Assembly: GCF_006345805.1 (NCBI RefSeq)
Contig: NC_043001.1
Coordinates: forward strand, 49,414,001 to 49,478,000
Reading direction: 5' to 3'
Source: Octopus sinensis
Lineage: Eukaryota
DNA: 64,000 nucleotides
Positions within the stretch are counted from its first letter, which is position 1. Each line of letters opens with the position of its first letter. Below are positions 4,114-64,000 of the stretch, one piece after another. The position numbers were made by a program, and so were the translations under genes. The notes beneath the pieces are model-generated. The model was not told the origin of the DNA. It was given only the letters and a program-made list of their open reading frames with translations, and ran no database searches.

Positions 4114-4358
4114 CTATGCTGGGATACATTAAAAAATGTAACTCGTATATTTTTATACTACTTCTATCTAAATTTTATTTATTTCAAATTTTCACACATA
4201 TAAACACTAGACTGTCACTTACATACCTTTGTATTTTCACTTCATGAGTGTTTACTGTTCATATCCTTACTATTTCGGTGCTGTGCATTTTTCAGCCGGC
4301 AAAACATTTCTGTCTAAACATTATACCTTTTTCTATGTTCTTTTTTTTCTTTACGCAG

Positions 4359-4711
4359 ATCCATTTGTGAAGGTAACTCTGACCATCAATGACAAGATCA
4401 TGAAATGTAAGAAAACTACCTGTAAAAAAAATACAATTGACCCAGTTTTCAATGAGTCGATCAACTTCAATGTATCGCCTCGTCAGCTGGCGAATGCAAG
4501 TCTAGTTGTGTCCGTGTGGGATTATAACTCGAAGAGCAAGGACGATTTCGTTGGACGTATTGTTCTCGGTAAGATGGCTACAGGTCCGCATGAAATTACG
4601 CATTGGTCTCGTATGGTACAGTCACAGCGTTCGGCCATCGCTCAGTGGCATTCACTGCGCACGCGCCAAGAATGTGATGCCGTCTCAGCTGCATCAATTG
4701 CTGTCCCTTGA
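4359..4711 (+). CDS. SYT17: Terminal coding exon of a synaptotagmin-17-like (B/K) gene, C2B domain
   Basis: A polypyrimidine tract and cag acceptor end at 4358. The exon reads DPFVKVTL..KKTTCKKNTIDPVFNES..ASLVVSVWDYNSKSKDDFVGRIVLG..HWSRMVQSQRSAIAQWHSLRTRQECDAVSAASIAVP*. The tail closely resembles vertebrate SYT17 as I recall it (QWHSLRSRAECDRVSPASL). Upstream exons lie before the window. Confidence 0.85.
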
Positions 4712-36722: not shown

Positions 36723-36763
<41 letters not shown>

Positions 36764-36867
36764 ATTTGTGGGTGGCATTAAAAAGAATGTTCAAAGCGAA
36801 AAACCATGTATTCTTGCTGTTGCGAACTTTTTATAAATTCTTCGAAATAAACATTTTCTGTAGAAGA

Positions 36868-38154
36868 TCAACGATCTTCTGTTGAATCCGACGATTTAAA
36901 TTCGTTTCGATCTAAATTGTATTCTAGAAAAGCCTTTAACCAATTTGTAAACATCAAAATTTCCTTCATGTTACACGCAATCAGTTTATTAACTCGGATA
37001 ACTTTATCTATTTTGTGGTGGATGAAGGCGGCTTGGAGCAGACGATAATTTTGTAGGAAACCTGATGCATCTGCTTTGGCTTTAATCTTGTATCTCGGTA
37101 GCACTATCGGATCTAAATGGTTCATTAGAAGACAAAAAACAATACCATCAGACAACTGATTTAAATCGTTGATGTCAACTGCGAGAGTTCTCCTGATCCA
37201 GTTTATAAGTGTTTTTCTTCCGTACATGCCAACCCGCTTCGGTTTAATCAACCGTGGCAAGAAATTGGGTGTCGTTTGGGGGTCTATCGCTGAATGACAT
37301 TTCTCAGTTTCCAAACCGTGCTTGATACGACTTTGAGGTTTTAAGCATTTAATTTCTGGTGTATCCCCGTGACCATATTTTATTAGAGCGTTATTTAAAG
37401 ATGGTATCAGGACAGAACTTTGTGATTGAGCTTTTGATTGGCTCTTAGAGTTTTCTAAATCATGTCTTTCTAGCATATCGGTATCGCTTTCATAAGCATC
37501 ACTAAGTATACTTGATGAATATACCTGATTGTTTGAGAGAAACTCTTCGCGGAGGTCGTCATTCAAGTTCGCCTCAAAGAAAGATTTAAGCCAATTTGTG
37601 AAGATAAGAATTTCTTTCAAATTTTTATCTTTAATTTTTTTAGGTATAAGTTTGTCGATTTTCAGTTCGTAAAATGCTTTTTCCAAAAGTTTAAAATTGT
37701 AATCATATGCTTCAGCCTTCTTTTCAAATTTAATTTTCTTTTTGGGAATAATATTTGGGGCTAAAATATCCAATAAAAAGCAATAGTGAATTCCGCTAGA
37801 AAGTTCTCCTATATCCAATAATTGTGTCTGTAATTGATCATTCACCCATTTTATGAGGGTTTTACGACCACACGAAGAAATTCGTTTAGGCTTATTCCAC
37901 TCAATTTTTGTTCCCTTCGGTCTATTATATATACGGTTTACCATAGATCTCCAAGTAAAACTTTCGTTAGAAGGAAATTTGGGAACGAAACTTTTTTGAA
38001 AAATAGTCTGTAATGTTTGAAAAACATCAGGACTCAGTTCAAGCATCATTGTCCAATCTGCATTGAATGAGACATATGATTCCTCAGATTTCCCTTCATT
38101 TTTGCTCCCTTCTTTTGCATGGAAGGATTCAGAAAGTGGTGTAATGCGAACCAT
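36868..38154 (-). CDS. Intronless EB1/MAPRE-like protein with two tandem calponin-homology domains (428 aa)
   Basis: Uninterrupted non-repetitive ORF. aa about 96-197 (GRKTLIKWVN..ELSSGIHYCFLLD..KKIKF..YNFKLLEKAF..IDKLIP..FTNWLKSFFEAN) and about 312-414 each follow the EB1 CH pattern (R..L.W.N..L.SG..YC..D...KK.KF..NFK.LQ..F...DK.IP..F..W.K.FF.AN). AATAAA lies on the minus strand at 36761-36766. Confidence 0.8.
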   Translation of the reverse strand: MVRITPLSESFHAKEGSKNEGKSEESYVSFNADWTMMLELSPDVFQTLQTIFQKSFVPKFPSNESFTWRSMVNRIYNRPKGTKIEWNKPKRISSCGRKTLIKWVNDQLQTQLLDIGELSSGIHYCFLLDILAPNIIPKKKIKFEKKAEAYDYNFKLLEKAFYELKIDKLIPKKIKDKNLKEILIFTNWLKSFFEANLNDDLREEFLSNNQVYSSSILSDAYESDTDMLERHDLENSKSQSKAQSQSSVLIPSLNNALIKYGHGDTPEIKCLKPQSRIKHGLETEKCHSAIDPQTTPNFLPRLIKPKRVGMYGRKTLINWIRRTLAVDINDLNQLSDGIVFCLLMNHLDPIVLPRYKIKAKADASGFLQNYRLLQAAFIHHKIDKVIRVNKLIACNMKEILMFTNWLKAFLEYNLDRNEFKSSDSTEDR

Positions 38155-38239
38155 TTTTAAATATCGAAAATGTTTTGGTTCGCTACAAATTCAGAAAAAA
38201 ATAGAAACTAAAAGTTGAAACTAAAAAGAAAATCATTTT

Positions 38240-43801: not shown

Positions 43802-45095
43802 CGAGGGACGTTCAATAAGTAATGTAATGCCCTGACCCACTTGCAGTTGTTTGATCTAGCTGAAATTTTGCATGTGCAATCGTTTCTATCTCTATAGAGT
43901 AAGTGGAAAATTACAGCTCTGAATTAATTGTGGTTTCTGATTTACAGGTGTTTGAACCGAGTCAAGTGTGAAATGGAGCCTGTTGAGTGTCGAGCAGTGA
44001 TCTGGTTTTTGTATTTGAAAGGACGTACACCACGGGAGACTTTTGATGAAATGAAAGTAACTTATGGTGATGATGCCCCATCATATGACCTTGTAAAACG
44101 CTGGCATCGTGAATTCAAACATGGTCGGAACTCTGTGGAAACAGCTCCCAGATCTGGTCGCCCCCTTCTGCCATTGATGAGGCATCTGTCCGTCAAGTTG
44201 AGGCTCCCATTTTGGAAGATCGACGCATAACTATTCGCCAAATAGCCCATGAGGTCAAGATTAGTACCGGATCTATGGAAACTATCATTCATGACCATTT
44301 GCATATGCAAAAGGTGTCTGCCAGATGGATTCCCAGGTTGCTCACGCCTTTCCAGAAGCAAGAACGCGTCGAGTGCTCGAGGGTGAATTTGGAGATGTGC
44401 CAAGAAGATGAGTCAAAATTTTTCAAAAGACTGATTACACAGGATGAAACCCGGATCCATCACGATGATCCAGAGACCAAAGCCCAGTCAATGAAGTGGA
44501 AGCACCGTGACTCACCCCCTCCAAAGAAGGCAAGGGTGCAGCCCTCCGTTGGCAAGGTCATGCTCACAGTCTTCTGGGACCAGGACGGAGTAGTGATGAC
44601 AGATTTCCTGGCAAAGGGTACCACAATTGCAGGAGCCTATTATGCTTCACTTTTGAGGAAATTAAGAAAAGTTATCAAAATCAAGAGGCGGGGCAAGATC
44701 AGCAAAGGCATCCTCCTCCTGCAGGACAACGCTCCGGTCCACAACTCGCTTGTCGCCAGATCAGAAGCACAGGCGTATGGCTATGAACTCCTCCCCATCC
44801 CCCCTACTTTCCTGACCTTGCACCCTCTGATTTTCACCTCTTCCCAATCATGAAGTTGTTTTTGAAAGGAAAGCGTTTCCCAGATGATGCAGCCTTGATT
44901 TCTGAAGTCACGTTGAGGTTGGAGGACCAAGTTGGGTCCTTCTACAAAAACGGTCTCCAGAGCCGCATCAAACGATGGGAGAAATGCGTAACTCTGGGTG
45001 GTTCCTATGTAGAAAAAGACTAATAACTGTGCCAAGTTTCGTTGCTCTACTGCTATAGGAAGTGGGTCAGGGGCATTACTTATTGAACGCCCATC

Positions 45096-54111: not shown

Positions 54112-54696
54112 GCTACCGCCGCCGCCGCAGCCGCCACCACCACCACCACCACACCACCACCACCACCACCACCACCACTAGTACTATCACCACCACTACC
54201 ACCACTACTACTACCACCACCACCACTACCACCAAGAACCACTCCGGCCATCTCGGACGGTAATCACAGAACTGACCACTTCGAATAACGATAACATTAA
54301 CCAATACTAACATTGAGCGTTGCAAACAACGGTAACAGCTGCAAGGATCATTCTGATCACCACGGACAGTAATCGCTCCAATACTGACCACCTCAAATAA
54401 CAGCAGTTGCCAAAATTTACTAGACCACTAAAATATAAAAAAAATAACTATAGCAAGAACACCATTCCCACCACAACCACCACCACCATCAACTATAACT
54501 CGAACAGCAACAACATCAACTACAGCAACAACAATAGCTACAACAGCAACAACAACTAAAACTAGAACACTACCAAGAACAACAATATCGACAGCACCAA
54601 CAACAATTATTACGTTTATTAAATCCGTTATAATGAAAGCCGTGGCTACTGTTTTAACATATTGGAGCATAACGTCTCTGTTGATGTTGTGTGTAG

Positions 54697-54888
54697 CTGA
54701 CAGGGCCCCAGCAAACCCTTGTATGTTTGTCGCCAACCAAACCACATTTCTAGCTGACCCCGACGGTAACTGTTCTACCTTCTATGTCTGTTCGAATGGT
54801 CACTCACTTCAGCTTTCATGCCAACCGGCAGGAGTCTGGAACGAAGAAACTTCGGCCTGCGTACCCCGATATTCAGTATTCGACCACT
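54697..54888 (+). CDS. Internal exon of a chitin-binding type 2 (CBM14/peritrophin-A) protein
   Basis: Acceptor tag| and donor |gtaagt, phase 1-1, 192 bp. Encodes NPCMFVANQTTFLADPDGNCSTFYVCSNGHSLQLSCQPAGVWNEETSACVPRYSVFDH(C), with CBM14 cysteine spacing. Confidence 0.8.
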
Positions 54889-54959
54889 GTAAGTGTCCTT
54901 TCTTTTCTTTTCTTTTCTCTTCTTTTCGTTTCATTTCTTTCTTTCCTTCTTTCTTTCCT

Positions 54960-54991
<32 letters not shown>

Positions 54992-55049
54992 TTTGTCGTC
55001 GTCGTCATCATCATTGTCATCTTCATCATCATCATTATCACCACCACTA

Positions 55050-55278
55050 CCTATTTCTTTACTACCCACATGGGGCTAAACACAGAGAGGACAAACAAGG
55101 ACAGACAAACGGATTCAGTCGATTATTACGACCCCAGTGCGTAACTGGTACTTATTTAATCGACCCCGAAAGGATGAAAGGCAAAGTCGACCTCGGCGGA
55201 ATTTGAACTCAGAACGTAGCGGCAGACGAAATACCGCTAACCATTTCGTCCGGTGTGCTAACGTTTCTACCAGCTCAC
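55050..55278 (-). mobile_element. SINE family B
   Basis: Reverse complement of the 35870 copy. Confidence 0.8.
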
Positions 55279-60119: not shown

Positions 60120-62648
60120 CAGGGGTTGGACAAAATAATGGAAACACCTAGCATCATAACATCATAATTTTGAAATATCTATAAAACCATCAAAAGCTTG
60201 TCTATTTTTATGTTTGTTGATTTATTATTAGTGTTGAATAATCTGATTTGCTAAAGCTGCTGTTTCTTTTCAGATATCATCAGAAAAAGGCAATTAAAAT
60301 TCATTAAAATGACAAATCTATCGGACTTTCAGAGAAGTCAAATTGTTGGTGCTCGTATGGCAGGCGCTAGCGTAACGATAACAGCCGAAATGCTTGGTGT
60401 AGCAAGAAGTACGAGGGGGCGTTCAATAAGTAATGCCCCTGATCCACTTCCCATAGCAGTAGAGCAACGACACTTGGCACAGTTATTAGTCTTTTCCTAC
60501 ATAGGAACTACCCAGAGTTATGCATTTCTCCCATCGTTTGATACAGCTCTGGAGACCGTTTTTGTAGAAGACCCCAGCTTGGTCCTCCAACTACGACGTG
60601 ACTTGAGAAATCAAGGCTGCATCATCTGGGAAACGCTTTCCTTTCAAAATCAACTTCATGGCTGGGAAGAGGTGAAAATCAGAGGGTGCAAGGGGAGGAG
60701 TTCATAGCTGTACGCCTGTGCTTCTGATCTGGCGACACGCGAGTTGTGGACCGGAGCGTTGTCCTGCAGGAGGAGGATGCCTTTGCTGATCTTGCCCCGC
60801 CTCTTGATTTTGATAGCTTCTCTTAATTTCCTCAAAAGTGAAGCATAATAGGCTCCTGTAATTGTGGTACCCTTTGCCAGGAAATCTGTCATCACTACTC
60901 CGTCCTGGTCCCAGAAGACTGTGAGCATAACCTTGTCAGCAGAGGGCTGCACCCTTGCCTTCTTTGGAGGAGGTGAGTCACGGTGCTTTCACTGCATTGA
61001 CTGGGCTTTGGTCTATGGATCATAGTGATGGACCCAGGTTTTATCCTGTGTGATCAGTCTTTTGAAAAATTTTGACTCATCTTCTTGGCACATCTCCAAA
61101 TTCATCCTCGAGCACTCAACGCGTTCTTGCTTCTGGAAAGGTGTGAGCAACCTGGAAATCCATCTGGCAGACACCTTTTGCATATGCAAATGGTCATGAA
61201 TGATAGTTTCCACAGACCCGGTACTAATCTTGACCTTATGGGCTATTTGGCGAATAGTTATGCGTTGACCTTCCAAAATGGCAGCCTCAACTTGACGGAC
61301 AGACGTCTCATCAACGGCAGAAGGGGGCGACCAGATCTGGGAGCTGTTTCCACAGAGTTCCGACTATGTTTGAATTCACAATGCCAGCGTTTTACAAGGT
61401 CATATGATGGGGCATCATCACCATAAGTTACTTTCATTTCATCAAAAGTCTCCCGTGGTGTGCGTCCTTTCAAATACAAAAACCAGATCACTGCTCGACA
61501 CTCAACAGGCTCCATTTCACACTTGACTCAGTTCAAACACCTGTAAATCAGAAACCACAATTAGTTCAGAGCTGTAATTTTCCACTTACTCTATAGAGGT
61601 ATAAATAAGTGCACATGCAAAATTTCAGCTAGATCAAACAACTGCAAGTGGGTCAGGGGCATTACTTATTGAACGCCATTCGTACTGTCTCGAAAGTAAT
61701 GACAGCCTTTGAGAAAGAGGGAAAAACTTCCTCGTCGAAACAAAACTCCGGAAAAAAACCAAAACTTTCAGATAGGGACCGTCGGACTCTTACGCGAATT
61801 GTTAGAAAGGATCACAGAAGTACAGCTCCCAAAATTACTGCAGAGCTTAATGACCACCTCGAGAACCCAGTTTCCACGAAAACTGTTCGCTGGAAGCTGC
61901 ACAAAGCCGGATCTCACGGGAGGGCTGTAATCAGAAAACCACTACTTTCAAAAACAAACGTTGCAAAGTATTTAGAGTGGAGTAAAAACCCATAGAATTG
62001 GTCCCCAGAGCAGCGGAAGAATGTTATTTTCTTGGATGAGTCATCCTTTACCTTATTTCCGACCACCGGCCGAGTATACGTGTGGAGACAGCCAAAAGAA
62101 GCATTTGACCCAGGCTGCCTTCTTCCAACTGTTAAACATGGAGGAGGATGTGTGATGATCTGGGGGAGGGCTATATCTCGGAAATCCACCGGCCCAATGG
62201 TTTCCCTTCATGGCAGAATTAATAGTCAAGACTATTAAAGCATTTTATCTTATCAGATTCATTCTATGGTTGCAGAACTGTTTCCGGAGGGAAACAATAT
62301 TTCAGGATGATAATGCACCAATTCACACAGTTAAAGTTGTTACTGAATGGCACGAGGAATTTCTAGTGAAGTTGAACATTTTATCTGGCTACAACAATCC
62401 CCAGATCTCAACATTATTGAACATTTATGGTACATTTAAAAAAAAGAAACAAGTAAGGAGTCGATATCCTCCACTGTCATTACTACAACTGGAGACTGTT
62501 TTAGCTGAATAATGGACAAAAATTCCTTTGGAAGCAATTCAAACTTTGTACGAGTCCACACCTCGTAGAATTCAAGCTGGTCCTACCCTATATTAAAATA
62601 AATTTGTTTGAAATTTTAAGATGTTTCTATTATTTTGTCCAACGTGTG
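60120..62648 (+). mobile_element. Tc1-like transposon interrupted by a mariner insertion
   Basis: TIRs caggggttggacaaaataatggaaaca / tgtttctattattttgtccaac with TA flanks. Transposase MTNLSDFQRSQIVGAR..ARS|TVSKVM..DESSF..TVKHGGG..FQDDNAPIH, with stops and frameshifts. Confidence 0.9.
60412..61682 (-). mobile_element. Full-length mariner copy (same family as 43802-45096) inserted at a TA in the Tc1 transposase
   Basis: Same TIRs, with TA duplicated at 60410-60411 and 61683-61684. Removing it restores gca aga agt act gtc (ARSTV). Confidence 0.95.
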
Positions 62649-62905
62649 TATATATATATATATATATACACACATATCTGTCGGTCCGTACTTAATCACA
62701 TGACTATTTGTCCAAACTTGTTCATGTTCTTCCGTCCATACCAACCTACATGTCTCGAAATGTAGTAACGGTATCATCTCTGCCTTTCTCTCTCTCACTT
62801 CCCCCTGTTTGTCTATTTATCTGTCTCGCTCTCTCTCTCTCTCTCTCTCGCTCTCTTTATGTATGTATCTGTTTGACAGTCTATCAATCAATCTATCTAT
62901 CTATG

Positions 62906-62984
<79 letters not shown>

Positions 62985-63015
62985 TTATCTATCTGTCTGT
63001 CTGTCTGTCTTTCAG

Positions 63016-63252
63016 GCAGCCGGAAGCATACACATGAAGCTGTCTTCTGTGAGGAAGGCCTGAACGGCACCAATCCCTACCAAGACAACTGTGCTCATTA
63101 TTTCGATTGCCATCCCATATCTTCAAATGGAGGCCGCCTGTTGAAACGTTCGGGTGAGTGCCCTTATCCAATGTTGTTCAACAGCGGCACTCGGAGATGT
63201 GAGCCTTATCGATTTGTCCAGTGTGGTCCACGCTATGAACCAACCGAACCAT
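63016..63252 (+). CDS. Next internal exon of the CBM14 chitin-binding protein
   Basis: Acceptor ctttcag| and donor |gtgagg, 237 bp, phase 1-1. Encodes (C)[65 protein letters not shown](C) and joins in frame with 54697-54888. Confidence 0.85.
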
Positions 63253-63435
63253 GTGAGGCTTTTGCTTTGTTATCTTATCTCCACCATATATTACACCCCT
63301 CACACACACACATGCACACGCAGGTGCTCACACTCGCACGCTCATGCGCACACAGTGATGCACGCGTACACACTCACTCAAACATGTACACAAACACACG
63401 CGGTTACATCGCAACGCATTCACTATTAACTAATA

Positions 63436-64000
63436 CACAGGATGCGTAAGGTATTTGAGGACATACTTTTTGTGAGTCATCGCTGCATTTTTTGCTAACG
63501 CTGTATAATCTTTGTTTCAGAAATAATGGCAGACCCTCAGCTTACTCAAGAAATGAAGAGGCATCCTGTTATTGTGGTTATAAAGGCTGAGCATAGCGAT
63601 TTAGAAATATCTCGATTTTTTAAAAGTTGCCAGATCTTTCGTCTACAAAGTTTGTAAGGAGCTAAAGACTGAAGATGGAAACGTATCACCAGTATCAGAG
63701 TATAAAAAGCATTCTAAACGGTCTGAAATCATCAGAACACCTGAATTTATCCATCAAGTTTAACAGACCATTGATTACAATCCCAGAAATTCCATGAGAC
63801 CAACCGCAAAAGATCTCTATGTGTTAGAAGGAACATTCAGAAATGTTGTCCACGAAGACATCAGATATAAGTCTTGTATGATGAGGAAATGTCAATTCGT
63901 CAGAAAAAGCAGAAGAAAATCACTACATCAGATCAAAAAGACTCTTAAACAATCTGAAAAATACAGTAGAAGATTTGATTTGATTTTTCTCAAATGAGAT
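63436..64000 (+). mobile_element. 5' part of a decayed Tc1/mariner-superfamily transposon
   Basis: MADPQLTQEMKRHPVIVVIKAEHSDLEISRF..KVARSFVYKV (HTH), then NPRNSMRPTAKDLYV..RNVVHEDIRYKS. It runs off the window end. Confidence 0.65.

Follow-up and report, generated by a model that had tools for sequence, protein, structure and literature searches.

An intronless, EB1-derived octopus gene encodes two EB-type calponin-homology domains in one chain and is predicted to bind the microtubule lattice

Canonical EB1/MAPRE proteins contain one calponin-homology (CH) domain and dimerise through the EBH domain, which also recruits SxIP partners, and a C-terminal acidic-aromatic EEY/F tail is a family-defining feature. 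A genome is usually said to encode between one and three EB proteins, all of them highly conserved, dimeric and tip-tracking. A stretch of 64,000 nucleotides of Octopus sinensis DNA (hereafter the window) contains an intronless frame that was proposed, in a preliminary description, to encode an EB1-like protein with two tandem CH domains and no EBH domain. This raises the question of whether the locus is a genuine gene and how such a protein would engage the microtubule.

The frame, designated P0001, is a single-exon ORF of 428 aa on the minus strand (36868..38154), defined by the frame itself and by its orthologs. It comprises 428 codons without an internal stop, with the ATG at 38154 and the stop at 36870-36868. 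When the region was shuffled 2000 times, no open frame exceeded 161 aa, and the intact 428-aa ORF reported earlier is therefore beyond chance. A candidate polyadenylation signal (AATAAA, 36761..36766, minus strand) is located approximately 100 nt 3' of the stop, and a second AATAAA is present beyond the stop at 36435-36430. Proteins of this type are named 'RP/EB family member 1', 'CH domain-containing' or 'hypothetical' in the databases. P0001 is a genuine gene.

The gene is probably transcribed without splicing. Unspliced single high-depth contigs from three probable RNA runs (36777..38225, strand not applicable) were found in three studies, each covering both CH domains and the stop with no joint among those listed: X4 spans 36777-38225, X17 spans 36777-38176, and X6 spans 36813-38124, starting 30 nt within the frame. 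The depths of the X4, X17 and X6 contigs were 80, 963 and 1683, respectively, whereas most single-copy bins of the flanks had 0-11; these depths do not measure expression, and the assignment of the three runs to RNA is the tool's guess. In a fourth run, X1, most of the frame was recovered in three low-depth pieces. The gene was not covered in runs X11 and X21, and almost no words were shared by X21-X24; neither result is taken as evidence of tissue restriction.

Full-length orthologs were found in Octopus vulgaris (1 residue different), O. bimaculoides (LOC106883474; 93%) and a Logan protein (89%), and the Argonauta hians ortholog of 415 aa was 51-52% identical, with both CH domains and the same end point. 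The frame is open and colinear across the four Octopus-type proteins and Argonauta. Identity to the Argonauta protein was 77/111 (69%) in the first CH domain (CH1), 65/111 (59%) in the second (CH2) and 29/105 (28%) in the linker between them. In word-indexed searches, the two-CH gene was found only in Octopus, one Logan record and Argonauta, which is weak evidence of its absence from squid, cuttlefish and Nautilus. The X4 contig was used as the reference for dN/dS, and the 58 listed differences within the frame corresponded to 27.5 synonymous and 30.5 non-synonymous changes. The unweighted dN/dS was 0.28 overall, 0.15 in the CH domains and 0.39 elsewhere, with p 4e-6 against neutral evolution for the unweighted count, and transition weighting gave 0.34-0.41. 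Five of the 64 X4-contig differences were not listed; when all five were counted as non-synonymous, dN/dS was at most 0.48. The long-term selection suggested in the preliminary description is supported by dN/dS of 0.28-0.48 under all weightings tried, and both EB-fold domains are under purifying selection. Signs of a processed pseudogene (a broken frame or dN/dS near 1) were not found for P0001.

The protein begins with an extension of 87 residues (aa 1-87; 37894..38154, minus strand, as for all parts below), which was absent from the preliminary description. This extension is conserved, with 40/87 residues (46%) identical in Argonauta, and is without known family; no other copy was found in the genome searched, and no ESM Atlas match was found for aa 25-95. 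A basic KPKR motif (aa 88-91; 37882..37893) precedes CH1 (aa 95-198; 37561..37872), which is followed by the inter-domain linker (aa 199-303; 37246..37560), another KPKR motif (aa 304-307; 37234..37245) and CH2 (aa 312-416; 36907..37221). The two KPKR motifs, which had been placed ahead of each CH domain, are also present in Argonauta, and a PKR motif is found in the paralog L002. The linker, which had been described as Ser-rich and about 115 aa long, is there, but its Ser content is modest, at 15/105 (14%). It is the fastest-evolving part of the protein (pN 0.061) and is acidic in Octopus (pI 5.2), while the CH domains are basic (pI 9.6 and 10.0).

Pfam PF00307 matched two stretches of P0001 (E 8.5e-17), the best being aa 313-402. 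The best PDB matches were EB1, EB3, Bim1 and Mal3 for both CH1 (phmmer E 2.4e-18) and CH2 (phmmer E 8e-15), and the two domains are identical at 52/119 positions. The Pfam and PDB boundaries agree within a few codons with those first proposed for two diverged EB1-type CH domains. An AF2 model of CH1, made with the 12-domain family alignment, showed a pLDDT of 89.7 and an rmsd of 1.4 Å to EB1/EB3 by Foldseek (EB1, E 4e-7). All 14 matches at E<=0.001 were above the first non-EB fold, parvin (E 0.023), and actin-type CH domains matched the CH1 fold at E>=0.02. The fold evidence covers CH1, and CH2 was assigned by sequence. A full-length AF2 model with a 3-sequence alignment was discarded (pLDDT 38). 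The ESM Atlas neighbours of P0001 were generic CH clusters, including CH_2 sperm-protein clusters, all of which scored below 0.9 and are leads only.

No Pfam match to PF03271 (EBH) was found in P0001 at E<=1. With a home-built EBH profile, P0001 was not among the matches, and 3/4 orthologs gave E 0.2-1.2, compared with 1.6e-17 for the canonical EBH exon. No EBH-like exon was found in the 64-kb window, where the best of 2711 frames reached E 0.13 (control exon, E 1.6e-17), and none of the 7 genome PF03271 matches is near the gene. An EEY/F tail was not found either; the last residue of the three Octopus-type proteins is an Arg preceded by an acidic stretch, and that of the Argonauta ortholog is a Phe without an EE motif. 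The HMMER/Pfam search thus returned two CH stretches and no EB1 C-terminal motif, and the claimed lack of an EBH region and EEY tail is borne out by Pfam, the EBH profile and the C-termini. Splicing to a downstream EBH exon had also been considered; the contigs cross the stop unspliced, and the window holds no such exon.

The gene was compared with other EB-like loci of the O. sinensis genome. The canonical EB1 gene, on another contig (C10), has three GT-AG introns inside its CH domain, whereas the P0001 gene (C5) has none, in agreement with the retrocopy origin claimed earlier. A genome search revealed 12 matches at 11 loci, in which the CH domain always lay within a single open frame (146-763 aa); among these loci, L003 extends into a gap of the assembly, and two others, L004 and L011, are short. 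The genome thus contains at least 11 EB-like loci with an intronless CH domain, P0001 being one of them, and a second search added broken EB-like copies. Because the canonical EB1 gene keeps its three CH introns, the intronless copies are best read as retrocopy-derived, with precise intron loss as the alternative. Any poly-A remnant or target-site duplication would probably have been erased by now, given that Argonauta also has the gene. A tree of 29 rows was built without L011, whose helix motif was off pattern and which was also outside alignment A2; the broken copies L030, L031, L041 and L042 and a tandem array on C7 were left out of both alignment A2 and the tree. One clade (100/99) comprised CH1, CH2 and L002, a paralog with a single CH domain, and another (100/99) comprised the remaining intronless copies, with long branches meeting between the two. 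A single origin of all intronless copies had support of 57/13 and was neither shown nor rejected.

The arrangement of CH1, CH2 and L002 was a three-way tie (p-AU 0.505 for CH1 with CH2 and 0.466 for CH1 with L002; support 52/0 for CH2 with L002), and no arrangement was rejected. A KEIL-x-F-x-NW motif is common to CH1 and CH2 and absent from L002, and the CH1 and CH2 halves of the gene share a 35-nt DNA match of 83%. Since these two features favour internal duplication, the CH pair quite probably arose in this way; the earlier claim gains the motif and the DNA match, while the tree leaves the tie with L002. The doubling is older than the Octopus-Argonauta split. L002, the closest paralog (G000:C2:185.69 Mb), encodes 494 aa with one CH domain and a long acidic tail without EBH. 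A second tandem-CH gene, L006/L012 (G000:C3:64.04 Mb), is intronless and encodes 441 aa with two EB-type CH domains, with conservation across three Octopus species (O. vulgaris, O. sinensis and O. bimaculoides). The hypothesis that both tandem-CH genes go back to one origin was rejected (p-AU 5e-5), as was pairing of their first domains (p-AU 1e-22), and the tree indicates that the L006 two-CH gene is a separate duplication.

The microtubule-binding face was compared using EB1 numbering by alignment; the helix Trp fixed the register, which in CH2 followed EB1 without gaps. At the position of EB1 Q102 (Mal3 Q89), CH1 contains Lys180 (37615..37617, minus strand; alignment) and CH2 contains Lys397 (36964..36966, minus strand; ungapped HMMER alignment to EB1); by match ends (5mjs_D), both correspond to Mal3 residue 89, provided that no gap falls within the last 15 residues. 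This position is Lys in 8/8 CH domains of the four orthologs and Gln in 4/4 canonical EBs of the tree. It is Arg in L002, Lys in both L006 domains and Gln in the L008 clade, and 11/12 intronless domains of alignment A2 have a residue other than Gln there (8 Lys, 1 Arg, 1 Ala, 1 Leu and 1 Gln). All 4 CH domains of P0001 and the Argonauta protein retain R17, K60, K76 (K or R), K89 and K112, and the four sequences of alignment A3 do not vary at R17, K76, K89 and K112. Several other contacts were changed: the K100 equivalent is Asn in 8/8 CH domains of the four orthologs, the K66-H69 loop differs, being shorter by one residue and without H69, K98 is lost, and D103/N104 are replaced by Glu/Ile. K59 and K66 are both kept in CH1 of P0001 only, and K59 is Tyr in CH2. 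Overall, the P0001 CH domains are only 24-31% identical to the octopus canonical CH domain.

Published mutants give these positions a functional context. Gln89 of Mal3 is reported to contact β-tubulin H3, with Q89E impairing tracking and Q89A binding the entire microtubule more tightly (PMC3368265); for Q89R, enhanced lattice binding and lost end tracking are cited in PMC3368265 and repeated in PMC6459531. Charge inversion of Mal3 K63/K76, equivalent to EB1 K76/K89 by a 13-residue offset, is reported to weaken binding, and Y56A to reduce it strongly (PMC3368265). Mutation of K100 together with Q102 is reported to impair binding (PMC5042579). The Gln has been called conserved in all eukaryotic EB1s on the basis of a seven-species alignment (bioRxiv 10.1101/2023.01.29.525995). 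For Bim1, reported Kd values are 0.2 µM for the dimer and 3.5 µM for the monomer, and the basic linker is described as needed for full binding and tracking (PMC2728395).

We propose, at a rough probability of 0.55, that the P0001 protein is a monomer that uses the two heads of its single chain to bind the lattice or to cross-link, and that it does not act as a +TIP hub, a proposal that draws on sequence comparison and on analogy with the EBs above. Like EBs, each head would bind at the four-tubulin corner, because the R17, K76 and K89 equivalents are kept and both CH domains are strongly basic. Judging from the Mal3 mutants, Lys at the Q102/Q89 position would weaken the preference for the GTP cap. 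The second head would supply the avidity that EBH dimerisation gives normal EBs, the linker of approximately 110 aa could bridge two sites or two microtubules, and the KPKR motifs possibly stand in for the basic EB linker. Microtubules would be stabilised or cross-linked, and growing ends would not be tracked. As the protein has no EBH, recruitment of SxIP partners is not expected. Of the earlier reading, loss of the EBH site for SxIP partners is supported, and the prediction moves from a pseudo-dimer that tracks tips toward lattice binding because both domains are without the tip-sensing Gln. Q89K itself is absent from the Mal3 mutants compared, the analogy resting on Q89A and Q89R, and it is imperfect because K100, a contact next to this position, is missing; rather than gaining a positive charge, the binding face may have had one shifted from the K100 to the Q102 position. 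The acidic linker, the altered K66-H69 loop, for which Mal3 Y56A is the relevant mutant, and the changes at K59, K98, D103 and N104 count against the lattice reading. The Q102 position is not the sole switch, because Plasmodium EB1 binds the lattice with its Gln kept; among the paralogs, the L008 clade has Gln as well.

The same evidence was weighed for other readings. The single chain might instead track plus ends and compete there with canonical EB1 without recruiting +TIPs, as the EB fold and several contact residues are kept and the Q102K change may be compensated by the loss of K100; according to work cited in PMC2728395, artificially dimerised constructs can track tips, and the EB3 CH domain on its own becomes enriched at ends. 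We consider this unlikely, since the H3-sensing Gln is replaced in 8/8 domains at a position where Mal3 changes impair end specificity, and since Bim1 tracking needs a basic linker whereas that of P0001 is acidic. It also seems doubtful that the CH fold was kept with poor lattice binding, as a scaffold for another partner such as free tubulin, axonemal or manchette proteins, actin or chromatin, possibly via the conserved N-terminal segment. The low identity to canonical CH domains, the changes at K100, H69, K98 and D103/N104, the 87-aa segment without known relative and the CH_2 sperm-protein clusters among the Atlas neighbours (below 0.9, leads only) all point that way, but the invariance of R17, K76, K89 and K112 on the EB binding face in alignment A3 and the distance of actin-type CH domains by Foldseek argue against it.

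It is very improbable that the locus is a retro-pseudogene that is transcribed, or that it is the opening exon of a longer gene with an EBH. Broken EB-like copies do exist in the genome, and the X4, X17 and X6 contigs are only probably RNA; however, the frame is open in all four Octopus-type proteins and Argonauta with a dN/dS of 0.28-0.48 under all weightings tried, the contigs run unspliced past the stop, and neither an EBH-like exon in the window nor a nearby PF03271 match was found. This explanation is largely refuted.

Comparison with known systems revealed both likenesses and differences. P0001 resembles human EB1/EB3, Mal3 and Bim1 in the EB-type CH sequence of both domains, the fold of CH1, descent from an EB gene and the R17, K76 and K89 equivalents. 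In contrast to them, each chain has a second CH domain and the 87-aa N-terminal extension, Q102 and K100 are replaced by Lys and Asn, respectively, and the coiled coil, EBH, EEY tail and introns are absent; because the EBH, the tail, the single CH domain and Q102 are all missing, it is better called EB1-derived than EB1. The Mal3 Q89A and Q89R mutants (PMC3368265, PMC6459531) are changed at the same position contacting β-tubulin H3, and L002 carries Arg there. In P0001, by contrast, the change is natural and fixed, is to Lys rather than Arg or Ala, and lies in a background approximately 30% identical to EB1 in which K100 is lost. The actin-binding tandem CH proteins (alpha-actinin, filamin, utrophin and fimbrin) also have two CH domains per chain, but they matched only at Foldseek E>=0.08, compared with 4e-7 for EB1, and the P0001 domains are both EB-type and approximately 113 aa apart, not a type 1 and type 2 pair with a short linker. 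The paralog L006 (XP_036356937.1, XP_052822784.1) shares the intronless structure, two EB-type CH domains and Lys at both Q102 positions, and differs in its separate clade and duplication and its degenerate EBH-like end (E 1e-5).

Doublecortin has two binding domains in one chain and stabilises the lattice. By analogy, the P0001 protein may work like doublecortin or Plasmodium EB1. Doublecortin is reported to bind the same four-tubulin corner (PMC3368265); its fold is unrelated, and the analogy is functional only. Plasmodium EB1 is described as a divergent EB that binds the lattice, does not track tips and acts in male gametogenesis (bioRxiv 10.1101/2023.01.29.525995). Unlike P0001, it is reported to keep the Gln, one CH domain and the coiled coil, with a linker that contributes to binding (same preprint).

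Our guess for P0001, again by analogy, is a role in the male germline, because retrogenes are generally testis-biased in expression and Drosophila has testis-expressed EB1 paralogs. More broadly, and tentatively, the EB1 retrocopies might constitute an octopod family of approximately ten microtubule-wall proteins in which the cap-sensing Gln was mostly swapped (for Lys, Arg, Ala or Leu) and the CH domain was doubled independently in two lineages, in one of them without a dimerisation domain, giving a doublecortin-like single-chain cross-linker for a stable array specific to cephalopods, such as the spermatid manchette or sperm tail. Among the literature matches listed, judged from titles and abstract openings, nothing described the P0001 gene, a naturally occurring EB with two CH domains or an expansion of EB genes in octopods. 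The repeated CH doubling, the fixed change of the cap-sensing residue and the family expansion are unexpected, although the parts are familiar and the function is a prediction. In the octopod lineage, the Q102 residue change was fixed and a two-headed chain evolved twice. These proteins are natural, easily expressed reagents for questions so far studied with engineered mutants, namely which features give a CH domain its preference for the GTP cap and whether avidity by itself is a sufficient substitute for dimerisation through EBH.

Several further EB-like loci were observed. L052 (G000:C3:170.347 Mb) and L005 (C3:170.386 Mb) are neighbours, both EB-like and without introns; their coiled-coil-like regions are much longer than usual (760 and 377 aa), and they have Leu and Ala, respectively, at Q102. 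The array at G000:C7:31013441-31020663 (L047, L048) comprises 14 head-to-tail copies of a 520-bp unit, 92-98% alike, in which the 5' part of a decayed EB-like CH domain lies beside an open-frame fragment that we take to resemble a LINE-type open frame. Four 275-aa proteins (P0009, P0010, P0017 and P0018) keep the Gln and are sister to the Octopus/Argonauta L008 clade (99/99); they are possibly from more distant cephalopods, in which case the intronless EB family predates octopods. A MAPRE1-like gene is reported among the non-Hox genes of the giant squid Hox cluster (PMC6962438) and could be a decapod member of this family. EBH-bearing EB1 genes were found on the unplaced contigs C8693, C10363, C13333, C12762 and C10288 (L014-L018). 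The three examined (L014, L015 and L017) are compact, with very short introns (one of 25 nt) and no microsatellites in the loci, and the contigs are probably from a co-assembled parasite, perhaps a dicyemid. In the Aedes and Diploptera EB1 models (P0014/P0015), the final third of the CH domain occurs twice, as if the annotation had joined alternative exons.

Elsewhere in the window, an open frame at 4211-4711 (plus strand) is last-exon-like and of the C2-domain type, presumably resembling the last exon of a synaptotagmin-type C2-domain gene. Cys-rich exons like chitin-binding peritrophin domains, with a Thr-rich stretch, are present at 54432-55079 and 62877-63449 (both plus strand), and broken transposase copies, which we take to be mariner/Tc1-like, are located at 43928-44853 and 60656-62512.
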